Shown: positions 2,405 to 63,810 of the stretch, piece by piece
Layout: each line of letters begins with the position of its first letter
How positions within the stretch are numbered: position 1 is the stretch's first letter
Source of the DNA: an uncultured Acidimicrobiaceae bacterium
GTDB taxonomy: Bacteria > Actinomycetota > Acidimicrobiia > Acidimicrobiales > Bog-793
DNA: 64,000 bases
NCBI GenBank assembly: GCA_963804265.1
Contig: CAWDPZ010000025.1
Coordinates: 44,869-108,868, forward strand
Direction: 5' to 3'
The notes under the pieces: generated by a model
What the model was told of the DNA's origin: nothing
Seen by the model: only the letters and a program-made list of their open reading frames with translations
The model's database searches: none
Program-made: the position numbers and the translations under genes

Positions 2405-3548
2405 CGCTGTCCGCCTTGCGCCGGGCCGCGGGTCTTGTCGTAACGCTCGACCGTGTCGGCGAGAACCGCGATGCCGTCGGCTATCGGTCCGAGGTCTATC
2501 CACTCCTCCGGCGTGTGCTCGCCCGCCCCCGTCGTCACTCCGAGGGCGAGGGCGGCCAGGCCCGCCGCGTGCGCGGCGTTGGCGTCGGTGCTCGTCGCGA
2601 CCTCCCGCCAGGCGACGCCCCGCGCCGCGAGCGCGTCCGCGCCGCGCTCAAAAGAGGGTGGCCCGGTTCGATGCGGCCGCCGGGGCGGCGCCCGATCTCG
2701 GAGAGCTCGACGCTGAGGCCGCCCGCACGCGGCGTGTCGAGCACGGCGCGTGCGGCCGACTCGAGCGACACCAACGTGGCCTCGTCGGCTCCCCGGAGGT
2801 CGAGGTCGAACTGCGCCCTTCGGGCACGGGCGTTGATCGACTCGCCACCTTCGAACGTGCCGACGTTCAGCGACGACGCGCCCGCCACCGTCGCGATGCC
2901 CGAGAGGGCTTCGACGATGCGGGCGGCTTCGTGCACGGCGCTCGGCGCACCGGACTGCTCCCATGCGTGGCCGCCGGGCCCGGTGACAAGGACGCGCCAC
3001 CGCCGCGACCCGACGCCGGTCGTTCCGATCTTGCCGAGATAGTTGCCCTCCACGGCGATGAGGGCGCCGAGCTCGGCCGGCGGGCAGGCGACCGCGTGGC
3101 GCGCCCCGGCGAGGTTCCCGAGCCCCTCCTCACAGACCGTGGCCAGAATGAGGACCGGGCTCGTCCCTGGCGCGCGCTCGAGGAGGCGGCCGACAGCCGC
3201 GAGAGCGGCGACGGCCACGCCGTTGTCGCCGACGCCGGGACCGAAGAGCCTGTCGCCCGCACGCCTGACCGCGTGGTCGGTCTCGGTGCCGAACACGGTG
3301 TCGAGATGGGCGGCGAGGACGACGGCGGGGCCGGTCCCGCTCCGCACCGTCGCCCAGCAATTCCCCGCCTTGTCGATCGACACGTCGCCGAAGCCGTCTC
3401 CGGACCACCAGCCGGCCACGAGTGCGGCACGCTCGTGCTCCTCGCCTGTCGGCGCCGGCACGCTCGAGACGCGGATGGTGCGCTCGACGACCTCCGCCGC
3501 GAGGTCGTCGAGGTCGAGATCGCGCCGTGGTGTCGAGTCGGCCGTCAC
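2401..3548 (-). CDS. M20/M25/M40 family metallo-hydrolase; frameshift near 2650
   Basis: AHLDTVF, GPGVGDN, VCEEGLG, GPGGHAW; C-terminal STDAN..EHTPEEW in the shifted frame. Confidence 0.85.
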
Positions 3549-4741
3549 GCCGTCACCGCCGTCCCCTCGAGCACGAGGTCGGCGATCTCGTGCTCGGAAA
3601 GGCCCAGCTCGCCGAGGACCGCCGCCGTGTCGGCGCCGAGGACGGGCGCGGCCTTCCCGTATCCGAGCGGCGCCCGGTCGATCCGAAGCGGTGGCGCGAC
3701 GGCGACCGAGTCGCCGGCACGCACGTGTTGCAGGTGCTCGACCGAGCCCAGCGCCGCGACCTGGTCGCCGGCGAGGACCTGTCGGATGTCGCGCACCTCC
3801 GCCGCGGGCACGCCGGCGTCCGCGAGCACCCCGAGCCAGTGGGCGGAGGGCTGCAGCACGAGCACCGCCTCGAGCGCCGCGGTGAGCTCGTCCCGGTGGG
3901 CGACCCGGAGGCCGTTGTCGGAGAAGCGCTCGTCAGCGACGAGGCCGTCCACGCCGAGCACCTCGCAGGCCCGGCGCCACAGCTCTTCTGATCCCGCTCC
4001 CGCCATGACGATCCAGCCGTCTGCGGTGCGAAAGCCCCCGTAGGGGGCGAAAGTGGGCGAGTGCGTGCCCAAGAGCCCAGGCACCTGTCCGGAGGCGAGA
4101 TAACCGGCGGCGACCGTGCCGAGGCCCGCCAGGGCGAACTCGAGCAGCGACGTCGACACCAGGCGACCGTGTCCGGTCGAGAGGCGCTCGACGTGCGCGG
4201 CGACGAGGCCGAGGGCGCAGGCGAGACCGGCACCGACGTCCAAGAGGGGAGCGCCCACCTTCACAGGGCCTGACTCGGGCGAGCCGGTGATGCTCATGAG
4301 GCCGGACTCGGCTTGCAGGACGAGGTCGAAACCGCCCTTTTCGGCCTCCGGCCCGACGTCTCCATAGCCCGAGATCGAGCCCATGATCAAAGCGGGGTAG
4401 CGCTCGTGGAGCGAGGACCAGTCGAGCCCGTGACGGGCGAGGCTCCCGGGCCGGGCGTTCTCGACGAAGAAGTCGGCGCGGGCGATGAGGCGCTCGAGCA
4501 TCTCGCGCCCGGTCTGGGTGCGGAACTCGAGAGCCACGCTGCGCTTGCCGGCGTTGAGCGACATGAAGAGCACCGACTCGCCGTTCACCCACTCCGTGCC
4601 CTGCCGGCGGTAGGGGTCGCCGCCGGGCGGCTCGATCTTCACGACGTCGGCCCCGAGGGCCGCGAGCAGGCTCGTCGCGTACGAGCCGGCGACGAAGCGG
4701 GTGAGGTCGACGACGACGAGACCCTCGAGCGGCCCGCTCAC
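3545..4741 (-). CDS. CaiB/BaiF family III CoA-transferase
   Basis: [57 protein letters not shown] overlaps the mutase stop. Confidence 0.92.
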
Positions 4742-6368
4742 CACAGACCCGGCTCCTTGAACTCGCCGAACTCGTGCCGCAGCACGTCGGACATCTCGCC
4801 GAGGGTCGCGCAAGCCCGGGAAGCCTCGATCAGGGCGGGCATCACGTTGCGGCCCTGTCGGAGGTCCCGGGCCAAAGTGTCGAGAGTCGCCGCCACCTGC
4901 GCCCGGTCGCGGGCTCTGCCTGTGGGTCTCGAGGTGGCGGATCTGGCGGGCGCCGATGTCGGGGTCCAACCGGAATAGGCGGAGATCGGAACGGTCGCTG
5001 TCGTCCTCGTAGATGTTCACGCCCACCTTCGGGCGGACACCCGAGCAGATCTCACGCTCGATCCGGTAGGCGGACTCGGCGATCCACGCCTGCGGGATGC
5101 CGGCCTCGAGCGCGGCGACAGCGCCGCCCGCCTCCTCGACCGCCGCCATCACCTCGCGGGCGCGGCGTTCGAGCTCGTCGGTCAGCCACTCAACGTAGAA
5201 GGAGCCGGCGAGAGGGTCCGCCGTGCGGGCGACGCCGCTCTCGAAGGCGATGATCTGCTGGGTGCGCAGCGCCAGGGTCACCGCCTCCTCGCTCGGCAGC
5301 TCGTAGGCCTCGTCGTAGCCCATGACGTGAATCGACTGGGCACCGCCCAGCACGGCGCCGAGGCACTGGATCGTCGAGCGCACGACGTTGTTGTACGGCT
5401 GCTGGGCCGTGAGGGTCGCGCCCGAGTTGCCGGAGAAGAAACGCAGTCTCGCGGACGCCGGGTCCTTGGCGCCGAACCGCTCGGTGGCGATCGAGTGCCA
5501 GAGCCGCCGGGCGGCACGGAGCTTGGCCACCTCCTCGAACAGCTCGAGGGTCGTGGCGAAGTGGAACGAGAGCCGTGGCGCGAAGGCGTCGAAGTCGAGC
5601 CCGCGTCCTACGAGCTCTGCGGCGTAGGCGACGGCGTCGGCCATGGTGAGGCCGAGCTCCTGCACGGCGTCGCAGCCGGCTTCGCGGGCGTGGTAGCCGG
5701 TGATCGAGATCGGGTTGAAGCGCGGAAGTTCTCCGAGGCGAACTCGACGACGTCGGCGGCCATCCGCATCGACGGCGCCGGCGGGTAGACGAACAGCTTG
5801 CGGGACAGGAACTCTTTCAAGATGTCGTTCTGCAGCGTTCCCGAAAGCTGCGCGTAGGGGACATGCTGGCGTTCGGCTGCCACGAGGTACATGGCGAGGA
5901 TGATCGGCGCCGTGGCGTTGATGGTGAAGTTGACCGACACCTCGCCGAGCGGCAGGGACTCGAAGAGCCTCTCCATGTCGGCGCGGTGTCGATGGCGACG
6001 CCGACGCGGCCCACCTCGGGCCGTGCCAGCTCGTGGTCCGAGTCGTAACCGAGCTGTGTGGGCAGGTCGAAGGCGACCGAAAGGGCCGTCTGGCCCTGTC
6101 GCAGGAGGAATTTGAACCGCTCGTTCGTCTCCTCGGACGAGCCGTAGCCGGCGAACTGGCGCATCGTCCAGAGCTGGCCCCGGTACATCGACCGGTACGG
6201 GCCCCGCGTGAAGGGCGCCTCGCCTGGAAGCCCCAGGCGCCCGTCGAGGGCAGCGGCTCCGCCGGGGAGATCCTCCGAGGTGTACACGGGTCGGACCTCG
6301 ATCGACGAGTCGGTGCGCGTGCCCTCGAGCCGGGCTGTGGCCTCGTCATAGGCGAGCCGGTTGCTCAT
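4738..6368 (-). CDS. B12-dependent acyl-CoA mutase large (substrate-binding) subunit; about 3 frameshifts
   Basis: [85 protein letters not shown]; ends GEFKEPGLW*. Confidence 0.92.
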
Positions 6369-6787
6369 GACATCCCCGCCGGCTCCGAGGCGACCATCTC
6401 GATGCGGGCCACGACCTCGTCGAGCCCGGACCCCACGGGCAGGACGTCCGCGACTCCCATGGCTTTCAGGAGCTGCGCATCGGTCTCGGGAATGGTCCCG
6501 CCGACCACGACCGCGGCCCGCGCCCCGACAGCGCGCATCGCCCCGAGCAGCTCTCCGGCGAGCTCCATGTGGGCCCCCGAGAGCACCGAGATGCCCACGA
6601 CGTCGGCGTCTTCTTCCACCGCCGCCGCGGCGATCTCCGCCGGGGTGCAGCGCAGGCCGAGATAGACGACCTCGACACCCGCGTCGCGAAGCGCCATGGC
6701 GATCACCTTGACTCCCCGGTCGTGACCGTCCAGGCCCGGCTTGGCCAGGATCACCCGGCGCGCTCGTCGTGGCGGGTGATCGTTCAT
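6365..6787 (-). CDS. Cobalamin-binding small subunit of the acyl-CoA mutase
   Basis: Base-off DxHxxG motif in [25 protein letters not shown]. Confidence 0.95.
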
Positions 6788-7985
6788 TTCGCCATTGCCA
6801 AGGCGGCGAAGGCGGCGTAGACCTTCGTCGCCTCGTGGATGTCCTCGACCGAGAGATGCTCGTCGGCGCAGTAGACCGGCGGGCCCCCGGGCCCGAAGAT
6901 GACGGTCGGAACCTTGGCTCCGAAGCTGGCCGTGTCGCCCAGCCAGTCCTCGGTCACGAGGGCCGGCTCGCCGTCGCGCACGAGGCGGACGGCGTCGAGC
7001 ATGAGCGAGACGATCTCCGAGCCCGGGTCCGCGAGGTAGCCGGCCTTGACATCGGCGAGGGCGACATCGGCCTGGAAGCGCTCGTCACGCCGGCGGGCGT
7101 CCTCGAGGCAGCGGTCGATCTCAGCTCGCACCTCGTCGGTCGTCACCCCCGGCTGCGGGCGGCAGTCGACTCTGATGACGCACTCGTCGGGGATCATCGA
7201 CGGGCCTCCGGGGGCCAGGCCGCCGAAGATGCGGCCTGGCACGACGAAGGTCTCCGGCCCGAAGAGCCGAAGCACCTCGGGCTCGAGCGCCGGCTCGTAG
7301 CGCGAGGCGTCGAGAGCGAGCACGGCTTGTGCGGCGAGCACGTTGGCGTTCACGGCGTCGTGCTTGTGGCAGGTGTGAGCGGACCGTCCCCGCACGGTGA
7401 CGTCGAAGTAGCAGCGGCCGCGGTGGCCGAGGCAGACCTCGTTGTCGGTGAGCTCGCCGAGCACGCACAAGTCGGCCTCGTGCTCGGCGAAATAGGCGAT
7501 GGAGCCCATCTGGTCGCCCATGTGGTCGCAGACGGCGGCCATGGCGAGGGTGCCGGAGACCGGGATGTCCGCGGCGCGCACGGCCTCCATGGCCACGATC
7601 TGGCAGACGAGGGCCGCCTTCATGTCCATCACGCCGTGCCCGTAGACAGCGCCGCCGATCAGATCGCCGGAGAAGGGCGTGCTGAGCTTCCAGCCGTGGG
7701 AGACCGGTTTGGTGTCGAGATGGCCGGTGAGCACGACGCGCGGACCGGCGCTGAAGCTCAGCTCGCCGACGGCGTTCGGGCGGTCCGGCAGAACCGGCTG
7801 GAGCTTGACGGCCTCGAAACCGGAGTCCTCCATGACAGACGCGAGGAATCGCGCCGAGCGCGCCCTCCTCACCGAGCACGCTCGGGATCCGGCACACCTC
7901 TTGCACCAGCTCGACCGCGCGGGCGAGATCGACCGAGGCAAGTACCGCCGCGGCGCGCTCTCGCCTGGTCCTGTTGAAGGCTCAT
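6784..7985 (-). CDS. M20 (ArgE/DapE-like) hydrolase with atypical active site; N-terminal frameshifts
   Basis: [35 protein letters not shown] at 7985 follows a GGGGGAG RBS. Confidence 0.85.
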
Positions 7986-8000
7986 CGGGCTCCCCCCACT

Positions 8001-8026
8001 TGGAATATCATATATCGCATAATCAT
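8001..8026. promoter_or_regulatory. Candidate internal promoter and degenerate GntR operator
   Basis: AT-rich island. Minus strand reads TATGCGATATATGATATT, with the same 7-bp period as the sites at 80 and 12379, and contains a TATGAT -10-like hexamer. Confidence 0.5.
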
Positions 8027-8093
8027 GACGGCGGCCAGCCTCTGACGCCCTGGCGGAGCGGCGGCAACCTCCCCGCCAGGGCGCGGACGGCTT

Positions 8094-9110
8094 TCAGCAG
8101 GCGTAAGGCAGGTACTTGTCGGTGGTAAGAGGTGCCGCGTTCGGCTTCTCGGTGATCAGCTTCTGTGACTTCATCCAGTTGCCGAAGCTCTGCCAGTTCA
8201 TCTCGCTCATGCAACCGACCTTCTGCCCGGCAGCCGGCTTGATGAGCGTCAAGGTGTAGGGGACGCTCACCTTCAAGAACTTGGTGGTGTACTGACTGGC
8301 CTTCTCCATGATCGCCGTCGCGCCGTTCGGGTTCGCGATCGCGGCGGTCGTCGCGGCGCTGAGGGCGCCGAGGAAGCTCTTGACCTCTGCCGCGTAGGCG
8401 GGGTCGGACTTGAGGCGGTTGCGGTTGGCGACGAGGACGAGCTCGGCGTAGTTCGGGACACCGAGGTCAGAGGCGGGGAAGACCGTCGGCTTCTGGCCCA
8501 TCTCCTGCGCGATCTGGATCGCCTCGACGTTGCGGTAGCCGCCGACGATGGCGTCCACCCGGCCGGAGAGGATCGACGGGATGAGGTTCTCCCCGACGGT
8601 CACGGTCGGGATCTGCTTGGCGGTCAGGTGCGTGGTGCGCAGCAGCATCTGGTAGATGGCCCCGTCGCTCGGGATGCCCGTGAGGCCGACAGACTTGCCT
8701 TTCATCTGGGAGAGCTTGGTGACGTGGTCCTTCGGAGTGACGATGAGCGAGTTGAGCGGCACCGGCACGATCGTGGAGACGGCCGTCACCGGCAGACCCT
8801 CCTGCTGTCCGTAGAACATCTCGGACTCGTAGGAGATCGCGAGGTCGACCTTGTTCAGGCCGACGAGCTTGATCGGGTCGGCGGCGTTCGACGGCGCCTG
8901 CAGGCTGACCGACAGTCCGGCCTTGGTGAAAAAGCCCTTGCTCTGGGCGTAGTAGAGCGAGACGTGGTCCGGGTTGGGGACCCAGTCGAGCTCGACCACG
9001 ACAGACTTCATGCTCGCTCTCGGGCTCGCCGTTGAGCCGGTGGCGAAGACCATCGACCCCGCCAGGGCCACGGCCATCGCCCCCATTGCCATCTTCAGTC
9101 TCAATGACAT
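8094..9110 (-). CDS. ABC substrate-binding protein, NMT1/THI5 (ThiY-like) family
   Basis: Signal peptide, then VELDWVPNPDH..YYAQSKGFF, DLAISYE, VDAIVGGYRNVE. Confidence 0.88.
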   Translation of the reverse strand: MSLRLKMAMGAMAVALAGSMVFATGSTASPRASMKSVVVELDWVPNPDHVSLYYAQSKGFFTKAGLSVSLQAPSNAADPIKLVGLNKVDLAISYESEMFYGQQEGLPVTAVSTIVPVPLNSLIVTPKDHVTKLSQMKGKSVGLTGIPSDGAIYQMLLRTTHLTAKQIPTVTVGENLIPSILSGRVDAIVGGYRNVEAIQIAQEMGQKPTVFPASDLGVPNYAELVLVANRNRLKSDPAYAAEVKSFLGALSAATTAAIANPNGATAIMEKASQYTTKFLKVSVPYTLTLIKPAAGQKVGCMSEMNWQSFGNWMKSQKLITEKPNAAPLTTDKYLPYAC

Positions 9111-9205
9111 AACAGTCCTTTCCCGTTCACTTGTCCGTTGTCTCTTGCGTGCTGGGGCGACCAGGCGGAGCCTTCCCGATCCCCCTTCCCCTCTGCGCAC
9201 CCCCC

Positions 9206-10074
9206 TTAACGCGACGTCCGCCGTTGGCTCCATGGTGCGATCAGATGCTCGGCGACCGAGACGGCACCGAACAGGACGATGGAGATCACCGTCAAGATGA
9301 AGATGGCGGCGAAGATGCGAGCCGTCTGCAGGTTCGGCGTCGCCTCCAGCATCACGTAGCCGAGGCCGGCGTTCGATCCCGCCCACTCCCCGAAGACGGC
9401 GCCGATCGACGCGAAGGTGGCGGCGATGCGCATGCCGGAGAAGATGAGCGGCAGCGCGGCCGGGAACTCGACCCGCTTGAAGATGGCCCACCGGCTGGCA
9501 TCGAGCGTGCGCATCATGCGGATGTAGTCGTCGTCCACCGAGCGCATCCCGTCCAGTCCGTTCACCACGATCGGGAAGAAGCAGATCAAGGCGACGATGA
9601 CGAGCTTCGGCACGATCCCGTAGCCGAAAAGTACGACGAGGATCGGCGCGAGCACGATGACCGGGACCGTCTGGGAGGCGATCAAAGCGGGTACAGGGCG
9701 CGACGGAGCGGCCCGAACAGGTGGAGGAACACGGCGATCCCGACACCGACGCCCGTGGCGATGGCGAAGCCGATGAGCACTTCCTTCAGGGTCGTGAGCG
9801 TTGCCGGCGCCAAGATGGCGCTCCAGTCGTCGCCGAGCGAGCGCGCCACCTCGGTCGGCACGGGCATGAGGTACTCGGGCAGTCCCGCGAGATGCACGAT
9901 GACCTGCCAGGCCACCACCATGAGGACGACGACGCCTGCTGCCGCCCCGTAGTTGGAGCCGAAGCGGCGTAGTCGCGCGAAGCGTCGCTTGACGACCAGG
10001 TCGTCGAAATCGGAGAAGTCCGGCTCGCGGTCCGCGTCGGGGGCGTCCGCAAGCTCGAGGTCCGTGGTGCTCAT
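9206..10074 (-). CDS. ABC permease (SsuC/ThiX type); frameshift near 9685
   Basis: LPEYLMPVP..TLKEVLIGF; SQTVPVIVLAP; FPAALPLIFSGMRIA; GAVFGEW. Confidence 0.88.
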
Positions 10075-10944
10075 TCGAGAGCCTCCAGTGCCAGCTCCCT
10101 GAGCTTGACGAACTCGGGGTCGGTCACGATCTCCCGGCGCGGACCCGACAGGCTCAGACGGGAGTCGACGACCCGGACGACCCGCCCTGGATGAGCCGAC
10201 AGCACCACGACGCGATCCGCGAGCAGGAGGGCTTCTTCGACGTCGTGGGTCACGAGGAGCACCGTGCGGGGGACGTCTTCCATGGCGTGGAGAAGCCACT
10301 CCTGCATCTGCGCACGCGTGATCGAGTCCAGCGCCCCGAACGGCTCGTCGAGGAGGAGGATGTCCTTTTCCGCCATCAGGGTCCGGATGAAGCTCACCCG
10401 CTGGCGCATGCCGCCGGAGAGCTGGGCCGGCCTCAGCTCCTCGAACTTGGCGAGGCCGAACCGCTCGAAGAGGGGACGGGTGCGCTCGCGGGCCTCACGC
10501 CGCCTCAAGCCCCGGTTCTCGAGGGCGATCGAGGCATTGTCGAGGGCCGTGCGCCAGGGCAGCAGGAGATCGCGCTGGGGCATCATCGCGCAGCGCGCCA
10601 AGCGGTCCTTGGCAGATGTCGCCCCGGCGACGTTCAAGGAGCCGGCGATCGGGCTCGAGCAGGCCGGCGACGATCTGCAGGAGCGTCGACTTGCCGCACC
10701 CGCTCGGGCCGAGGATTGCCACCTTCTCGTGCTGTTGGATCGTCACGTCGACGCCGCGGAGGGCCACGACCCCTCCGAAGCGCTTCGACACGCCACGGAC
10801 CGTGATCTGCGGGGCCTCGAGCGGGGTCCGCGATGGCGGCGGCCCGGCGTCGCGGACTGCAGGCGCGGCGCTGCCCGTCGTCTGGGTCATGACCGTCTCC
10901 GGCTGCGTGTCGGTTCCATCCGGCCGCTCCGATCCGAGGCTCAC
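10071..10944 (-). CDS. ABC ATP-binding protein (SsuB/ThiZ type); frameshift near 10640
   Basis: [32 protein letters not shown]. Confidence 0.9.
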
Positions 10945-12359
10945 AGCACCGGCCAGCTCGGGCCAGGCTCGATCCCGATCGTTGCCAGGACCTCGCGGTC
11001 GATGCGCTCGACGGCTTCTCGGACCTCGGCCTCGTCGACACGTGTCAGGTGCTTTGCGTCAAGAAGAACCTCGCCCGCGACGAGCACGGTGTGCACGGAG
11101 TGCCCGGTCGAGCCGTAGACGAGATTGGCGACCGGGTTGTGGAGCGGGCGCCAGTCGAAGTCCTCGGTGTCGAAGCAGGTTATGTCGGCTTGTTTCCCGG
11201 GCTCGATCGACCCGCTGACCGTGTCGAGTCGCAACGCCCGGGCACCGCCGATGGTCGCCATCTCGAGCGCCTGCTCGGCGGTGACGGCGTTCGGGTCACG
11301 CCGGGCGTCGCGGGGCAAGAGCGCGGCAAGATGCATGGAGCGGCAGATGTCCTGGTGGTTCGAGACGTTCTCGGCGTCGGTGCCGAGCGCGATCGGGACT
11401 CCGGCTGCGATGAGCTCGGGCCACTTGCCCGTCTGAGTCGTGCCCTTGGCGAACTTGAGCGCCGAGCTCGGGTTCTGGGAGATGCGAGCGCCTGTGTCGG
11501 CGACCAGGTCGACCTCGAAGTTCTCGAGGGAGGTCATGTGGTTGAGCAGCACCCACGGGTTCAAGGCGCCGATCGAGTGCATGTGCTGCAAAGGCCGCTC
11601 CCCGAAGGCCTCGAGCTCCAGGGCCACCTCCCGCTCGCTCGTGGCCTTGTGGAGCACAGCGAGGGAGTCAGCTTCCTCGGCCAGCTTGGCGGCTCCGAGG
11701 TTGAGGGCGTCGGAACACGTGCCCACCCCCTCGATCGTGACGGCGTCGCTGATGAGCGGGTTGCCGAAGGCCCGGACCGTCTCGATCCCCCGGCGCAGGC
11801 GGTCGAGGGCGGAGTCCGCGTCCATGACGAGCCAGTCCGGAAGGTCCGCCCTGCCGGCCGGTCCTCGTTGGTCCCACGTCCAGGGCCCGACGCGGCAGCG
11901 GATTCCGGAGGTGGCGAGGGCCTCGAGCACCGCCTCGAGATGGTTGCAGCCCGGTTCCTCGAAGGTGGTCGTACCGAAGCGGATCATCTCGGCGGTCGCG
12001 TGGAGCGCGTAGGCGTGCATCTGTTCTTCGGTCAAGGCCGCAAAGCACGGATAGGTGAACGTGCGCAGCGCCTCGAGGGTCTGGCGGCCTTCAGGCAGCG
12101 CTCCCTTCGGGCAGCAGAGCAGGTGACGGTGACCGTTCACGAGCCCGGGGGTGACAACCATCCGCGAGGTGTCGATGACCCTGCCGGCGCGGTAGCGGGC
12201 TTCGATGTCGGCGCGCTGGCCGGCGTCGAGGATGGTCGTCCCGCTGATCGCCACGGCGCCGTCCCGATAGACCTCGCGGCGGCCGTTCATCGTGATCAGC
12301 CAGCCGCCGGCCAAAAGCAGATCGACCTCGACGGGCCGAGCGTCGGTATCTCCCCCCAC
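10941..12359 (-). CDS. Amidohydrolase superfamily protein (SsnA/Atz/Trz-like)
   Basis: [46 protein letters not shown]. Confidence 0.9.
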
Positions 12360-51487: not shown

Positions 51488-52070
51488 ATGCTTGGAATCG
51501 GTGACAGCTTCCCCGAGTTCTCCCTCACGGCGCTCATCCCCGGCGACCTGAGCGCAATCGAGGCCAAGGCGCCAGAGGACTACTTCACGAAGATCGACTC
51601 CTCCACCTACGAGGGCAAATGGCGGGTCGTCTTCTTCTGGCCGAAGGACTTCACCTTCATCTGCCCGACCGAGATCGCCGAGTTCGGCCGCCTGAACACG
51701 GAATTCGCGGACCGCGACGCCCAGGTTCTGGGCGGATCGGTCGACAACGAGTACGTGCACTACGCGTGGCGCAACCAGCACGAGGACCTGAAGAATCTCC
51801 CCTTCCCGATGCTCTCGGACCTCGACCGCGAATCTCGTCGCCGACCTCGGCGTCCTCAACGTCGACGGCGTCGCCGACAGGGCCACGTTCATCGTCGACC
51901 CGGACGGCATCATCCAGTTCGCCATGGTCACAGCCGGCTCGGTGGGTCGCAACGTCGAAGAGGTGCTCCGTGTCCTCGACGCCCTGCAGACCGACGAGCT
52001 GTGCGCTTGCAACTGGCACAAAGGTGCGGCGACGCTCGACGCGAAGGCGCTCATGAGCCAGAGCTCTTGA
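51488..52070 (+). CDS. ahpC: Peroxiredoxin AhpC (mycobacterial type); frameshift near 51830
   Basis: [40 protein letters not shown]. Confidence 0.93.
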
Positions 52071-52627
52071 TGGGCGTTCCTGCTCTCAAAGAGGCGCTGC
52101 CCGCTTACGCCAAAGACATCCGCCTGAACCTCGACTCGACGATCGCCGTCTCGACGTTGCCCACCCAGCGGCTCTGGGGCACCGTGCTCGCGACGGCTAT
52201 CGCCTCGCGGGGCCGGCGCGTCCTGGTCGAGCTTGCCGAAGAAGCGAGACAGCACCTCTCGGGCGAGGCTTTCGACGCCGCCAAGGCGGCTGCTGCGGTG
52301 ATGGCGATGAACAACATCTACTACCGCAGCAAGCACCTGCTCGCAGACGAGGGGGCCAAGGACTACCAAGACCTGCCTGCTCGGCTGCGGATGCAGGTCA
52401 TAGCCACCCGGGGCGGTGCGGACGCCGAGGATTTCGAGTTCTGGTGCCTGGCGGTCAGCGCGGTGAACGGTTGCGGCGGCTGCCTGGCCGCGCACGAGAG
52501 CAAGCTCCGTGAGCTCGGCGTGAGCAAGGACCAGATCCACGAGGCACTGAGGATCGCAGCCGTCGTTCACGCCGTGGCGGTAACGCTCGAGGCCGAGGAG
52601 GCCACGGCCCAGACCGCCGTCGCCTGA
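52070..52627 (+). CDS. ahpD: Alkyl hydroperoxide reductase AhpD
   Basis: [43 protein letters not shown]. Confidence 0.93.
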
Positions 52628-55670: not shown

Positions 55671-56405
55671 TCAGGCCCGGTGGACGATGACGAAGGGCGT
55701 CAGCTCCTCGCCTTGGCCCATCGGGTTGTCGAGGAGGACCAGGCGCGCCGTCGCCTTGTCGACCGGCATGTCCGGGCTCACCCCGAGCACCTCGACGTTG
55801 ATGTTGTTCCCGTCGATGATGACCACGGGGTGGCCGAGGTAGGCCGCGTAGCTCCTGCACGCCTTGTCCGGGTCGGCCGGCCCCAGCATCGCGAACTCGT
55901 CGAAAGGCTTCACGGTGTCCGGGTTGAACCCGTCTATCTCGGCGATTCGGTGACCCGCGATCCGGTAGAAGTCGCCGTGCCGGCCGAACAGCTTGGTCAC
56001 CCCGCCGACCACCATGGCGAAGGCGGCGCGCGCCGAGCCCGTCTGCATGATCGCCACCTGCATCTTGCGCGGGTCGCTGAAGGCGACGTCGTGCTCCCAC
56101 TTGCGGGTGCCCTTGACGATGAGCTTCGCGAGCGGTCCGGGCCGGACGACCGAGTAGTGCACCACTCTGCCTTCGGAGATGGCCACGACCTTCTCCGACA
56201 TCGCCACCCAGTCCCCGTCTTCGAGCAGAGGACGCACTCGCGAGTCCAAGATGGGCTCGAGCGCCTCTTTGATGTGGATGAGATGGGTGTGCACGAGGGT
56301 GCGCTGATAGGTGTGCCCGCCGAGCACGACGTCGGGAGCGGCTTCGGGCGCCCCTACGGCGGGCGGTCCGGGCTCGGGCGGCCCGGCCTTTTCTGGCGGC
56401 GTCAT
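55671..56405 (-). CDS. CofE-like (F420-0:gamma-glutamyl ligase fold) protein
   Basis: THLI..GDWVAMSEKVVAISEGR, AEIDG, LGPADP, VIIDGN, DNPMGQGEELTP. Confidence 0.78.
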   Translation of the reverse strand: MTPPEKAGPPEPGPPAVGAPEAAPDVVLGGHTYQRTLVHTHLIHIKEALEPILDSRVRPLLEDGDWVAMSEKVVAISEGRVVHYSVVRPGPLAKLIVKGTRKWEHDVAFSDPRKMQVAIMQTGSARAAFAMVVGGVTKLFGRHGDFYRIAGHRIAEIDGFNPDTVKPFDEFAMLGPADPDKACRSYAAYLGHPVVIIDGNNINVEVLGVSPDMPVDKATARLVLLDNPMGQGEELTPFVIVHRA

Positions 56406-58235
56406 CGGACGGCCACCGGCGAGTCGACATAGCGCCGCAGCCAGAGCTCGGTCACGAGCACGCGCCAGAAGGCGAGCCCGTCACCCGGCTTGCCGGCGAG
56501 CCAGGCGTCGAGCTCCTCGACGAGCCTCCGCGGGTCGAAGATCCCGCGGGACGACAGCGAGTCGGACGAGAACACCTCGCGGATCTGCCCGGCGCGCTCT
56601 CGTGTCCAGGCGGCCTCCGGATTGGTGAAGCCGATCTTCGAGCGTCTCGTCCGGTTGGCCTCAGGCATCTTTCCTCTCATGGCCTGACGGTACACGTAGC
56701 GGTTCCACCCTCTCTTGATCTTCTGGTCGATGGGCAGCTGGAAGATGAATTCGACCAGCTCGTGGTCCAAGAAGGGCACCCGCGACTCGATGGAGAAGGC
56801 CATGGAGTTCTTGTCCTCGTAGCGCAGCAGGTTGGGCGTCGAGTACTTGAGCACGTCGTCGGCGAGCCGGCTGTTGAGGTTGCGGCTCGGCCGGTAGTCG
56901 AACTCGGCGAGGGCGCCGGGCGCGGCGGTGAGGAAGTCCGGCATGGAGAAGGGGCGCTGACCGCCAGGCCGGCGCGCTCGCCATGAGCTCGCGGGCATAG
57001 CTCTTGTACAGGTCGCGCCCCATGAGCGCCTCGCGGACCGCGGCCAGGAAGTGGCGCTGGTCGACCGCCGAGCTCAGGTAGGTCCGGAAGTAGGGGAGGT
57101 AACCGGCGAGCAGCTCGTCTCCGCCGTTGCCCGACAAGATCACCTTCACCTCGCCTTTGGCGATGCGGTAGACGCTGTAGTAGGCGTACGGCGCCGACGA
57201 GATCGTCGGCTCCTCCTGGTACCAGATCCACTCGGCGATCTCGTCCCAGAACTGGTCGACGGTCGGGTAGGCGTAGTGCGGGACGCTGTGGACGTGTCTC
57301 TCGACCGAGTGAACGTACTCGCTCTCGTCGATGCTCTGGCCCGGGTAGAGGGCCGAGAAGGTGTGCAGCGCGCCGGCGGTGTGCGTGTCGGCGCCCGAGT
57401 GCATGAGGGCTTCCATGACCGAGGAGACCCCGCTCGAGTCGAGGCCTCCGGACAAGGAGACGCCGACGGGCACATCGGCGATCATGTGGCGCCGGATGAC
57501 CCGCTCGAACAGATCCGCGAATGCGTCGGCGTACTCCGAGTCGCGCAACGACGACGAGAACTCCGGGTTGACCTCGGGTGCCCAGTACTTCGTCGCAGCC
57601 GTTCGGCCGTCGGCCGCCACCGTCATGAAGTGTCCGGGCAAAAGACGCTTCACGCCCACGAAGAACGTCTCCTCCCCGGCGTCATGCACACGATGGAGGA
57701 GGAAGCGGTAGAGCACCCCCATGTCGGCGGCGCGCGGGACCCTCGGGTCCTGGAAGAGCGCCTTCAGCTCGGACGCGAAGGAGAAACGGCCCGATTGCGA
57801 GAAGTAGTACAGCGGCTTTATGCCGAGCCGGTCGCGGGCGAGGTACAAGACCCGCGACCGCGGGTCGACGATGGCGAAGGCGAACATCCCCACGAGACGC
57901 GTGACGCACGAGTTGCCCCACTGCTCGTAGGCGCGCAGCACCGTCTCGGTGTCCGAATGGTCCGACACGAAACGGTGTCCCGCGCGCATGAGCTCCGCGC
58001 GCAGCTCCGCGTTGTTGTACAGCTCCCCGTTGAACACGATGCAGGCGCCCGTGCGCTCGGAGCAGATCGGCTGCTCACCGCCCTCGATGTCGATGATGGA
58101 AAGGCGTCTCATCCCGACGGTGAAGTCCTCGCCGACCTCCGCGCCCCAGGAATCGGGCCCCCGGTGCTCGATGGACGCCAGCATGGCGTCGAGCAGCTCC
58201 GGGTCGCGGCCGGTGAAGCCCGCTATCCCGCACAC
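56402..58235 (-). CDS. asnB: Asparagine synthase-like glutamine amidotransferase; frameshift near 56975
   Basis: N-terminal CGIAG, HRGPD, FNGELYN, SDTE, LSGGLDSS, SGNGGDE, DKNSMAFSIESRVPFLD. Confidence 0.9.
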
Positions 58236-59119: not shown

Positions 59120-59774
59120 GTGACAGGAACCTCGAAACGCAGCGACGAGCCGCCACGGCGCCGAGATGTGGGCGGCGACGACTTGGCCGGGGAGGCGCTG
59201 GAGCTGGCGGTCGCCGCCGTGTCGCTCTGGTGCGGCGCCACCAGCGCTGTCACCGTGGTCGCCGTCGACGGCCACGGTGCCTCGGGCAAGACGACGCTCG
59301 CCGGCCGGCTCTGTGACCTGTGCGAGGCGAGCCTCGTCCACACGGACGACTTCTTCATACCTGAGGCCGCTGGCGGCGCCGAGGGCGGCCAGGCCATCGG
59401 GAGCTATTACGACCTCGCCCGCCTGCGCCGGGAGGCTCTCGGGCCGCTGCGGGCGGGCCGCGAGGCCCTCTACCGTCCCTACGACTGGGACTCGGGAAGG
59501 CTCTCGGACGAGTACACGCACGTCACACCGGCACGACTCGTCGTCGTGGAGGGCGTGTGCTCCTCCGCGCCGGCGCTGCGAGACCTTGTCGACAAGACGA
59601 TCTACGTGAAGACGCCCGAGGCCGAGCGGCTGAGTCGCCTGCGGGGCCTGATCGCGCCCGAGGACTGGGACGACGAGTGGCTGCGGGCGGAGCGGAGGTA
59701 CTTCGCCGACATCGCGTCCCGAGGACTCGTTCGACATTGTCGTCAGCGGGGCCGCGCCGGCCAAGCACGACTAG
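59120..59774 (+). CDS. Uridine kinase-like P-loop kinase; frameshift near 59720
   Basis: VAVDGHGASGKTTLA, HTDDFF, YRPYDW, VVEGV, W..AERRYF. Confidence 0.8.
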
Positions 59775-59785
59775 GCTGTCGGAGA

Positions 59786-59890
59786 AGTGCACGGGAGCTC
59801 GGGTGTACCGGGCTGAGAGGGTGGCTGGCCGGCGGGCCGGATTGCCACCGACCGTTCGAACCTGACCGGGTAATGCCGGCAAGGGAGGTG
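59786..59890 (+). ncRNA. TPP (thiamine pyrophosphate) riboswitch
   Basis: CACGGGAGC..GGGCTGAGAG, P3a GGTGGC/GCCACC, GACCGTTCGAACCTGA, P5 CCGGG-TAAT-GCCGG, C-AAGGGAG. All THI-box landmarks appear in order in an intergenic leader. Confidence 0.88.
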
Positions 59891-59896
59891 GCCACA

Positions 59897-61908
59897 GTGA
59901 CGACGTCGGGCCCGAAGGCGCCCTTTTCGCGCGCTGAGAGCCTTGTCGGGGCTGAAGAGCTCGTCCGCCGAGGCCTCGAGACCGCCGGACGGGCTCCTCG
60001 CGCCTCGAGCCGCGCTCGGCCTGCTCGTGCTCGCCTCCATCCAGGCGTGCGGCTCGTCGGGCACCGGCTCGGCGACGACGGCTCGGCAACGAAGGCTCCC
60101 GCTGCTGCGGCGAAGGCCCTGGGCGCGGTTTCGAGGACGGTGATCGGCGGGGGCACGGCCTATTTCGCCGAGCAACCGGAGACCCCGCCCGACTACATCT
60201 TCCCGCTCGTCTCCGGGGCCTATTTCACGGACGCGAACACGGCCGATCTCCAGACCCTCCTCTACGAGCCCCTCTACTGGTTCGGCGACAGGGCGTCGAC
60301 GTCGGTCGACTACGGGCTGTCGGTCGGCAACGCCCCGGTCTACAGCGACGGCAACCGCGTCGTGACGATCACGCTCAAGCACTACATGTGGTCCGACGGC
60401 GAGGCCGTGACCGCCCGGGACGTGATCTTCTGGATCAACCTTTTGAAGGCGAACCGGGACGGCTGGGCCTCCTATGTCCCCGGCGGGTTCCCCGACAACG
60501 TGAGCTCGGCCACGGCCCCCAACGCGACGACTGTGCGCCTCAGGCTCAACGACGCCTACAACCCGATCTGGTACACCTACAACGAGCTCTCCCAGATCAC
60601 CCCGCTCCCGCTGGCCTGGGACCGCACCTCGCTCTCGGCTCCCGCACGGAAAGCCCGGCGCGAGATATCTTCCTGACTCCACGCCGTCGGGGGCAAGGGC
60701 GGTCTACGACTTTCTCAGCACACAGGCCACTCATCTCGCGAGCTACGCCTCGAGCCCGGTCTGGTCCGTTGTCGACGGGCCCTGGAAGCTCGTCGGGCTC
60801 ACGACCGAAGGGACCGCGACCTTCGTCGCCAATCGGCGCTTTTCCGGTCCGGACAAGCCGCATCTGGCCAGGCTCGTCGAGCTCGCCTACACGAGCGCCG
60901 CCGCCGAGTTCTCGGTGCTGCGCGCGGGGTCGGCCAAGGCGGCTCCGGCTCTTCTGCGGGCGGCGACCAGATCTCGGTCGGCTACGTGCCGGACAACGAC
61001 CTGCCGCAGTCAGGGGCTCTCCGCGCCGCAGGGCTACCAGCTCGTGGACTGGTACCCGTTCCAGTTCGACTACTTCGAGCCGAACTTCAACAACCCGACG
61101 GTCGGGCCGATTCTGCGCCAGCTCTACTTCCGCCAGGCTTTCCAGCATCTCGTCGACCAGCAGGGGTGGATCCACGCCTACTACGGCGGGCTCGGGGTCC
61201 CGACCTACGGCCCGGTGCCGGCGAGCCCGGCCAACCCGTATGCGGACGCGAGCGCGTCCGTGAACCCCTACCCGTTCAGCGTGCCGGCGGCCGCCAAGCT
61301 GCTCACGGCCCACGGCTGGAAGGTCGCGCCCGGCGGCGTCACGAGCTGTGCCCGTCCGGGCACGCGGTCCGAGCCGGTGCGGCCAGGGCATCAAAGCCGG
61401 CGAGGGCCTCAACTTCACCCTCATGTACCCGAGCGGCCTTCCCTACACCGACGGTTCGATGGTCGACCTGCAGTCGGTGGCCAAGCAGGTGGGCGTCGAG
61501 ATTGCCCTCAAGGAGGTGACGCCGACCACGATCGCTTCGACGATCCTGACCTGCTCGCCGGGCCAGGCGGCCTGCAGCTGGGAGCTCGGCCAGTACGGCA
61601 GCGGCTGGGTCTTCGAGCCCGACCACTACCCGAGCGGGGAGGAGATATTCGAGACCGGCGCCCTCGGCAACGTGGCCAACTACTCGAACCCGACCTCGGA
61701 CAAGCTCATCAAGGCGACCACGACGACGCCGGCCGCCGGCGCCCAGGCCGCCCTCGACGCCTACCAGGACCAGGTTCGCCTCGAGCTCCCCAACTTCTGG
61801 CAGCCGAGCCCGGGAACACTGGTCACGGTCTCGTCGAACCTGCGCGGCTTCGTCCCGAACGCCTACGGGTTCATCAGCCCCGAGGAGTGGTACTTCTCGA
61901 AGGGCTGA
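59897..61908 (+). CDS. Opp/Dpp (SBP family 5) substrate-binding lipoprotein; several frameshifts
   Basis: Lipobox-like LASIQA-C; PDYIFP, LLYEPLYWFG, WSDGEAVTARDV, VDGPWKL, RQAFQHLVD, PEEWYF. Confidence 0.85.
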
Positions 61909-61944
61909 GCCAGAGGCCGATGCGGACGGAGGGCACGAGCGGAC

Positions 61945-62893
61945 ATGATCGGGTACACACTGCGGCGCCTCGTCCAGGCCGTGGTCGTCCTCCTCGGCGT
62001 GACGGTGCTCGTGTTCGTGCTCGAGCACATCATCCCCGGCAACCTCGCCCGCGCCGTGCTCGGCCCGCGGGCGAGCGCCGGGGAGATGGCGAACTTCGAC
62101 AGGGTGAACGGCCTCGGCCGCCCGGTCGTCATGCAGTACCTGACGTTCCTCTCCCATGTGCTCCACGGCAACCTCGGTTACTCCTACCGGCTGAACCAGA
62201 GCGTCGACTCGCTCGTGGTCCACGAGCTGCCGAACGACATCATCCTCGTCGGCATCGCCCTCGTGCTCGCCCTCGCCATCGCCATCCCCCTCGGCGTCGC
62301 CCAAGCCGTGCGGCGCAACCGTGCGCTCGACCATGCCGCCACGGGGGTGGCGCTGCTTGCTCTACTCGATGCCGTCCTATTGGCTGGGGCTCCTGCTCAT
62401 CGCGGGGATGGCGATCGGCCTGCACGCCTTGCCGCCCGAGGCGCCCCAGGCGGCGACAGTCGCGGGCGTGCTCGCCGACCCGCGCGCCCTGGTGCTCCCC
62501 GTCCTCACCCTCACCCTCGTGAACGTGGCCCTGTTCAGCCGTTACATGCGCTCGGCGGCCATCGACACCCTCGCCCAGGACTACGTGCGTGTGGCGCGGG
62601 CCAAGGGGCTCCCGGCGCGCGTCATCGTCGCCCGCCATGTGCTGCGCAACTCGCTCGCGCCGGTGGTGACGCTGCTGGGGTTGTCCGTCCCGGCCGTGCT
62701 CACGACGGGTCTCGTCGTCGAGTACGTCTTCAACTTCCCCGGCCTCGGCCTCACCTATTTCAACGCCGCCGTGAACGCCGACTACCCGGTGGAGCTCGGC
62801 ATCACCGTCATCGCCGGGGTGGCGACAGTGCTCGGCAGCCTGCTCGCCGATCTCGCCTACGCCGTGCTCGACCCGAGGGTCAGATATGGCTGA
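61945..62893 (+). CDS. Opp/Dpp ABC permease B; frameshift near 62355
   Basis: YTLRRLVQAV, GNLGYSY, QDYVRVARAKGL..HVLRNSL, YAVLDPRVR. Confidence 0.9.
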
Positions 62894-63810
62894 TCCGCGC
62901 CCGGCCGTCGAGCTGCAGGGGACCAGGCTCGGTCTGCTCGCCGAAGCCGGATAAGGCGCGCCCGCGACCCGGCCGCAGCTCGTTCGCGTCGGGGTTCTTG
63001 GAGAACCGCCTCGGCGTTGTCGGAGTGGGGATCATCGTCGCCGTGGCGGCGTTCTGCTTCGGCGGCCCGCTCGTCTACCACAGCGACCAGTTCCAGGCGA
63101 ACATCGCCCTCACCAACATGCCCCCCGGTGCCGGACGCCCGCTCGGGACCGACGCCAACGGCTTCGACATCCTGGGGCGGCTCATGGTCGGTGGGCAGAG
63201 CGCGCTCGAGATCTCGCTCGCCGTCGCGCTCGTCGCGACGAGCTTCGGCGCCTTGTGGGGGGCGGTCTCCGGCTTCGTGGGGGGAATCCTCGACGCCCTC
63301 ATGATGCGCGTCGTGGACGTCGTGATCGCGGTGCCCGCCATCTTCTTGCTCGTCTACCTGGCGAGCGTGTTCCGCCCGAGCGTGCCGGTCTTGATCCTGG
63401 TGCTCTCCTTCCTCTCCTGGCTCGGCCCGGCGCGCCTTGTGCGCGGCGAGACCTTGTCGTTGCGCACGAGGGAATTCGTCGATGCCGTGCGCGCCGCGGG
63501 CGGCAGCAGGCCGCGCATCGTCGGGCGCCACATCATCCCGAACACCCTCGGGACGATCTCGGTCAACGCCACCTTCCAGGTGGCCGACGCCATGATCATC
63601 CTCGCCACCTTGAGCTTCCTCGGTTTCGGTCTGCCGCCGCCCGCTGTGAGCTGGGGTGCGATGCTCTCCCAGGGGACGACCTATCTGCTCGACGGTTACT
63701 GGTGGGAGGTCTATCCGGCCGGCCTCATCGTGATGGTGACGGTTGTGGCGTTCAACTTCGTGGGCGACGCGATGCGCGACACGCTCGATGGGCACTTGCG
63801 CGAGCGGTAG
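62886..63810 (+). CDS. Opp/Dpp ABC permease C; N-terminal frameshift
   Basis: PLGTDANGFDILGRL, ARLVRGETLSLRTREFVDA, HIIPN, SFLGFG, FNFVGDAMRD. Confidence 0.9.

Follow-up and report, generated by a model that had tools for sequence, protein, structure and literature searches.

A TPP-type riboswitch between a P-loop kinase gene and an Opp-type transporter in Actinomycetota: a candidate thiamine importer

Why is a transporter of the oligopeptide (Opp) type preceded by a thiamine pyrophosphate (TPP) riboswitch, and what does it carry? The question is raised by a stretch of 64,000 nt (the window) of the genome of an uncultured Acidimicrobiaceae bacterium (G000, 65% complete), in which a putative TPP aptamer lies between the gene of a P-loop kinase and a unit coding for a family-5 solute-binding protein (SBP) and two permeases. 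The pairing of switch and transporter is real and widely conserved, and its best reading is that of a new thiamine ATP-binding cassette (ABC) importer variant, with a candidate new thiamine kinase. In the reading that we favour, with a probability of roughly 60%, the TPP-controlled SBP and its OppB- and OppC-type permeases import intact thiamine, and the kinase makes thiamine monophosphate (TMP) from it for ThiL. That the cargo is one of thiamine, TMP and TPP seems quite probable.

The aptamer, its start signal and the transporter genes

The aptamer was located at 59790..59887 of the forward (+) strand by a match to the TPP family RF00059 (45.5 bits, E 1.2e-7, model positions 10-89, Rfam with permissive filters), by arms that form in the minimum free energy (MFE) fold when the RNA begins at the predicted start near 59784, and by its orthologous copies, which score 51.4-64.6 bits against the same model (52.3-57.6 within the family). 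No other TPP match in G000 is credible, the runner-up having an E of 0.7. An earlier note, made from the letters of this DNA, had placed a THI-box upstream of a family-5 SBP gene and pointed to RF00059 as the check; the match bears out the box at the permissive threshold, while an Rfam scan of the window at the curated gathering threshold gave zero matches. The CUGAGA loop (J3/2, pyrimidine pocket) and the helices P2 to P5 are present, with P2 at 59791-94/59852-55, P4 at 59861-64/59881-84 and P5 at 59866-69/59876-79, all on the + strand, and P2 was seen in the variants ACGG/CCGU, GCGG/CCGU and GCGG/CCGC. Folding of 59775-59900 was no better than that of shuffled sequences (z -0.27), indicating that free energy is no evidence for this riboswitch.

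The 3' end of the aptamer doubles as ribosome binding site, as proposed earlier. A Shine-Dalgarno (SD) sequence, AAGGGAGG (59881..59888, + strand), lies within P4/J4-1 and is separated by 8 nt from the GTG of the SBP gene at 59897, and in 42 of 49 orthologous switches an in-frame start is found 6-13 nt past AGGGA. Upstream, a predicted -10 promoter element of the form TANNNT (59772..59777, + strand) overlaps the kinase stop codon and keeps a conserved spacing to P2. Such a hexamer is found 12-16 nt 5' of P2 in 46 of 50 aptamers and at 38 of 10000 random positions (0.4%), a conserved position suggesting that the switch has its own promoter and that the leader is very short. The leader transcribed from this element would leave the SD sequence open at low TPP; binding of TPP would dock the two arms, keep the SD sequence in P4 and block translation, which agrees with the sequestration of the ribosome binding site put forward in the earlier note. 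Rodionov et al. are said to have described SD-overlapping THI elements in actinomycetes in 2002.

The transporter genes follow on the same strand and belong to the families first assigned to them: a family-5 (cluster C) solute-binding lipoprotein (59897..61908, SBP_bac_5 on two pieces, lipobox Cys near 60048), an OppB-type permease (61945..62893, PF19300 or BPD_transp_1_N plus PF00528 or BPD_transp_1) and an OppC-type permease as last gene of the unit (62886..63810, PF12911 or OppC_N plus PF00528). All three families pass the Pfam cut-offs on gene pieces. In this assembly the frame of the SBP gene changes six times or more and that of each permease gene once, near the start in the OppC-type gene. 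Intact SBP orthologues of about 640 aa are common, and the analyses of the full SBP were run on these; the OppB-type permease is 88-89% identical to an intact orthologue. The SBP matches SBP_bac_5 only, with no ThiB-family match, and an intact orthologue of the unit stays below the NCBIfam cut-offs (Opp4A 47 vs 650, Opp2B 249 vs 350 and Opp4C 276 vs 350 bits). The AlphaFold model of an intact SBP orthologue (pLDDT 75) resembles the AppA, DppA and NikZ folds at no more than 18% identity. An ESM Atlas search of the SBP gave generic names only. An ATPase gene (OppD/OppF) is absent from the unit both in the window and in the mapped loci of close orthologues (26 gene maps). The nearest OppDF is a fused one in the closest paralogous cluster (contig C16:22488-24579). 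At 14 of 76 orthologous loci the binding protein has neither permease, which fits the sharing of a translocon.

Similar frame breaks were found elsewhere in the assembly, in carB, pyrD, uvrC, ahpC, asnB and oppDF (names from sequence and Pfam). Four studies supplied short-read contigs of close strains, and among the indels listed the extra bases at 59716, 60647/8, 61026/8 and 61365 do not occur in them; these contigs come from other strains and thus support, without proving, assembly error. The frameshifts in this assembly are likely to be errors of this kind. One run yielded RNA contigs over parts of the unit, a coverage that cannot show expression. Frameshifts also affect ahpC/ahpD and an asparagine-synthase-family gene of the window (51488-52627 and 56402-58235), as they do numerous other genes in the assembly.

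Conservation of the switch and transporter pairing

A close orthologue of the SBP was found in 20 of the 21 genomes of the genus (G000 included), and in 12 of these 20 carriers the switch lies directly upstream, the remainder having none (seven) or a contig edge at that place (one). With strict filters and 37-52 scored candidates per genome, a single TPP match was obtained for each of the 12 switch-bearing genomes. The orthologue also occurs in seven genomes from other genera of the family, and one of them, G029, has the switch (57.6 bits). In species genomes 288 loci were confirmed by a scan, and the best 80 were taken on; of these, 76 have an identity of 60% or more, Streptosporangiaceae and Solirubrobacterales being among their hosts. 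Outside the family there are 52 such loci, two of them with the SBP at a contig start and omitted, and an RF00059 match just upstream was found in 41 of the 50 searched (by coordinate and strand matching), 29 of the 41 at or above the cut-off. Orthologues with a switch thus span three actinobacterial classes. Loci of distant paralogues had none (0 of 8 and 0 of 3). The expectation that SBP orthologues would carry the switch therefore held for most loci outside the family and for 12 of the 20 genus carriers, and failed for seven of the latter. The proposal that an Opp/Dpp system has been repurposed for thiamine is supported by the presence of the switch at orthologues and not at distant paralogues, and by the place of the SD sequence within P4/J4-1. 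Conexibacter sp. S30A1 (L212), cultured and with a complete genome, carries the intact unit.

Two aptamer types precede the orthologues. A quick tree of the SBP, with the 62 of the 80 loci that have a long intact frame and 10 paralogues, groups the orthologues in a single clade (SH-aLRT 99-100), in which members with and without a switch are mixed in all three lineages; beyond the remnants described below we claim no order of gains. Switch-less orthologues often adjoin ThiY-like or TenA genes. A second switch and SBP copy was seen in G001 in another context and with no kinase (L068:6100-9009, contig G001:C168), the syntenic copy of this genome being switch-less. A third aptamer type (66.8 bits, L126) precedes a lone family-5 paralogue of the SBP, 33-34% identical and with no adjoining permease, at L126:2254-4284 (G100) and L127:2196-4004 (G109).

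Thiamine genes, the kinase and the cargo

The thiamine genes of the carriers point to what may be imported. In the family set of 92 genomes (27 carriers and 65 non-carriers) ThiE is present in none of the carriers and in 49 of the non-carriers, a count that includes the unpublished G105 and G113. ThiC was found in none of the 27 carriers and ThiN in none of the 92 genomes, while ThiL was found in 19 of 20 genus relatives. Where ThiE is missing, the known route has no means of joining the two thiamine halves (PMC6593275, in part). The absence of ThiE in family carriers thus indicates that the cargo should be a whole vitamer; a precursor, which the earlier note had allowed beside thiamine and its phosphates, is disfavoured within the family by this gene content. 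In five switch-bearing genomes, each at least 90% complete, no ThiB passed its cut-off (TIGR01254) and no match to YkoE, PnuC-type transporters or ThiT was found, ThiV not having been searched for; tblastn of G000 agrees with these absences. The same five gave no match to the NCS1 permease or the APH kinase of a relative, and one of them, G005, has an NMT1-family match.

The gene immediately upstream of the switch (59120..59774, + strand, start inferred), which does not appear in the earlier note, codes for a uridine-kinase-like P-loop kinase with PRK/AAA_33-type matches below the cut-off. Its frame is broken in the assembly by an extra base at 59716 that is absent in the short-read contigs of all runs compared. 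A kinase gene was found at 67 of the 76 orthologous loci, five of the nine misses being at contig ends. Within the family it is present in 28 of the 92 genomes, none of them with ThiE, and in 0 of the 49 genomes with ThiE (one weak 40% match excluded). The genus g53 reproduces this distribution, having five genomes with the kinase and no ThiE, four with ThiE and no kinase and one with neither. The nearest structures of the kinase are 1rz3 (an unnamed Geobacillus-type protein), uridine kinases and NRK1. Since a cell with ThiL and neither ThiE nor ThiN must obtain TMP from a thiamine kinase or by import (PMC3020362, in part), linkage and co-occurrence make this protein a likely thiamine kinase feeding ThiL.

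In relatives without the unit the same switch lineage precedes operons of an NCS1 permease and an APH kinase, indicating a parallel transporter-plus-kinase plan; in other relatives a shorter switch precedes ThiY-like, permease and APH genes. At L098, L099, L106, L108, L128 and L130 TPP switches were observed on APH-family phosphotransferases behind NCS1 or ThiY-like transporters, and these enzymes are likely ThiK-type kinases.

Put together, the SBP would hand unphosphorylated thiamine to the two permeases, which would depend on an ATPase encoded elsewhere, the fused OppDF in the closest paralogous cluster (C16) being the most plausible one. The kinase, as a non-orthologous replacement of ThiK, would then convert thiamine into TMP, and ThiL would convert TMP into TPP.

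Several observations weigh against this proposal. In the RNA, the aptamer of the window scores below the RF00059 gathering cut-off (45.5 vs 54.3 bits), its closing helix P1 has a single base pair (1-2 bp in 48 of 50 parsed aptamers and 0 in two, one of these mis-anchored by the pattern), and, with C77 present, J5/4 lacks the equivalent of G78, which is missing in only two of 80 distinct aptamers collected (that of the window and one other). The loss of this base looks real because the contigs of two runs show no gap at the site. G78 bonds the pyrophosphate in the thiM riboswitch structure according to sections of PMC7824784 and bioRxiv 10.1101/2025.01.21.634073, and the aptamer of this species may read the phosphate end of its ligand differently. 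The switch is absent in the seven genus carriers already mentioned and in 9 of the 50 loci searched outside the family, the genomes are related, so that counts overstate independence, and most are incomplete metagenome-assembled genomes. As for the thiamine genes, G000 has no ThiL match at 1e-30 (in a genome 65% complete), and some of the importer searches in the five switch-bearing genomes had no positive control. ThiE is present in 33 of 50 carriers outside the family (24 of them with the switch; these counts include the unpublished G145), so its exclusion is not general, and the idea that all carriers lack ThiE was given up for this reason. Lastly, the kinase gene lies 5' of the switch and is thus not TPP-controlled; G029 (86% complete) and G036 (81% complete) have the transporter and no kinase match; outside the family the kinase co-occurs with ThiE; and among 27 long homologues of the kinase (of 150 listed) none is fused to a thiamine-pathway domain named by Pfam, the fusion partners being MobA-like, GNAT, HAD, nucleotidyltransferase and, once, APH domains.

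Among the other explanations, the one that survives best, unlikely as it is, has the transporter importing TMP or TPP and the kinase acting on another substrate, a nucleoside or a pyrimidine. ThiL alone would finish imported TMP, G029 has both switch and transporter with no kinase match, and the nearest solved relatives of the kinase are uridine/cytidine kinases. Yet across three classes the kinase stays with the transporter (67 of 76 loci), and in the family it and ThiE exclude each other, and two of its orthologues reach only 37-42 bits against the uridine kinase model (TIGR00235), far under its cut-off of 220.

An import of breakdown products or precursors, such as hydroxymethylpyrimidine (HMP), formyl-aminopyrimidine or oxidised thiamine, repaired or degraded by a ThiY-like protein and TenA, is distinctly unlikely. 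It is suggested by the neighbours of the unit. At 14 of the 76 loci a gene for a signal-less, cytoplasmic NMT1/ThiY-like protein, whole or as a remnant, occupies the slot of the switch (e.g. L064:6573-7499), and the unit has TenA genes in its vicinity in G112, L201 and L210; genes for rhodanese, a biotin carrier, a carboxylase and TenA adjoin some of the loci with the ThiY-like gene. The presence of ThiE in the 33 outside carriers would also allow it. In the 27 family carriers, however, the halves are not joinable by the known route. Moreover, five of the ThiE-bearing outside carriers have no ThiC, ThiG or ThiM (ThiD was not searched for) and do have ThiL, Thi4 is absent in the two of them that were examined, and in all three outside loci read ThiE stands apart from other thiamine genes. 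In three genomes of Solirubrobacterales type (L221:6572-7708, L222:6526-7617 and L223:6571-7635), none of which gave a match to ThiC, ThiG or ThiM, ThiE forms part of a protein of 355-379 aa whose gene adjoins lipoamide dehydrogenase-like genes.

The signal-less ThiY-like protein has an invariant GGYWCWD motif, with a Cys, in 10 of 10 copies, and may act as an enzyme of the cytoplasm or bind thiamine. A role as THI5 synthase was considered and rejected, as ThiY-type structures match far better (E 9e-20 and 9e-16 vs 1.5e-4) and the alignment has different residues where THI5 has its Lys and His. Divergent from the kinase unit, L092:10640-15001 and L135 (both G112) and L091 (G080) contain rhodanese, biotin carrier protein and carboxylase subunit genes, and the G112 cluster also two TenA genes, an amidohydrolase-like and a dehydrogenase-like gene; this is possibly a thiamine breakdown cluster. 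The window itself has on its reverse (-) strand, at 2535-12359, genes for an amidohydrolase, an ABC system with an NMT1-family SBP, M20 peptidases, a methylmalonyl-CoA-mutase-like protein and a CoA-transferase, and a TenA homologue lies beside this cluster just outside the window (G000:C25:44281-44917). Similar clusters were seen in G034, G084 and G021, and no TPP switch was found.

That a common Opp system for peptides or metal chelates acquired a neighbouring switch, with no link between its substrate and thiamine, is very improbable. The SBP has a peptide/nickel fold, and no thiamine-bound relative is among the matches listed by sequence and fold searches; on the tree the switch has a scattered distribution, and remnants of the ThiY-like gene just 5' of the switch at two same-genus loci show that in one lineage it replaced an NMT1-like gene. 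Against this, the switch sits at the SD sequence in 41 of 50 distant loci, in more than one aptamer type, and is absent at the distant paralogues, and the thiamine importers searched for were not found in five carriers. About as improbable is a system real in relatives and decaying in this genome, with pseudogenes and a weakened switch; the six or more frame changes of the SBP gene and the rare, gapless J5/4 change speak for it, and frame breaks in genes such as carB and pyrD and close-strain contigs that lack the extra bases speak against it.

Comparison with known systems

The import of intact thiamine followed by its phosphorylation can be placed, more tentatively, in a wider picture. Soil and peat Actinomycetota of three classes might share a two-part vitamin B1 route, in which an Opp-derived importer works on a shared ATPase and a family of P-loop thiamine kinases replaces ThiK; nearly P1-less TPP switches would have been recruited more than once, and the aptamer of this species would perhaps be atypical at the phosphate end. 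If true, the cargo of family-5 binding proteins would come to include a vitamin, a missing thiamine kinase would be named among proteins now labelled 'uridine kinase', and it would be explained how actinobacteria that are abundant in peat and soil obtain B1 without the genes for its synthesis. With the intact unit of Conexibacter sp. S30A1 these claims are directly testable in a cultured strain. In the open literature (subscription journals, RegPrecise and bioRxiv supplements being outside the scope) neither an Opp-type importer of thiamine nor such a kinase was found.

ThiBPQ (TbpA-ThiP-ThiQ) likewise is an SBP-dependent ABC importer under thiamine control (PMC3020362, in part). Unlike it, the unit described here has an SBP of SBP_bac_5 and not of the ThiB family, two Opp-type permeases and no ATPase in the operon. 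The Opp/Dpp/Nik transporters (AppA, DppA, NikZ, CtaP) share the SBP_bac_5 fold and the OppB- and OppC-type permeases; the SBP, in contrast, is at most 18% identical to the solved ones and under every Opp/Dpp/Nik NCBIfam cut-off, and the unit has no oppDF and is TPP-controlled. Opp/Dpp systems under a cofactor or metabolite switch are known in SAM-oppBCDFA of Bacillus cereus (SAM, S-adenosylmethionine), cobalamin-dpp of clostridia and glycine-dpp. In Table S1 of PMC3766115, all eight places with opp/dpp genes are under SAM, cobalamin or glycine and none under TPP; the paper also gives a list of 19 TPP transporter genes. As to the RNA, the E. coli thiM switch, also of RF00059, shares with the window aptamer the CUGAGA loop, P2-P5 and an SD sequence at the 3' end. 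The differences are that P1 has 0-2 bp in all 50 parsed aptamers, J4/5 is one base shorter in the lineage of the window, and the window copy is without the G78 equivalent. The enzyme ThiK, whose fold is that of APH/choline kinases, and the TPP-NCS1-APH operons share with the unit the proposed conversion of thiamine into TMP before ThiL and the layout of transporter plus kinase, whereas the candidate kinase here is a P-loop, uridine-kinase-like protein.

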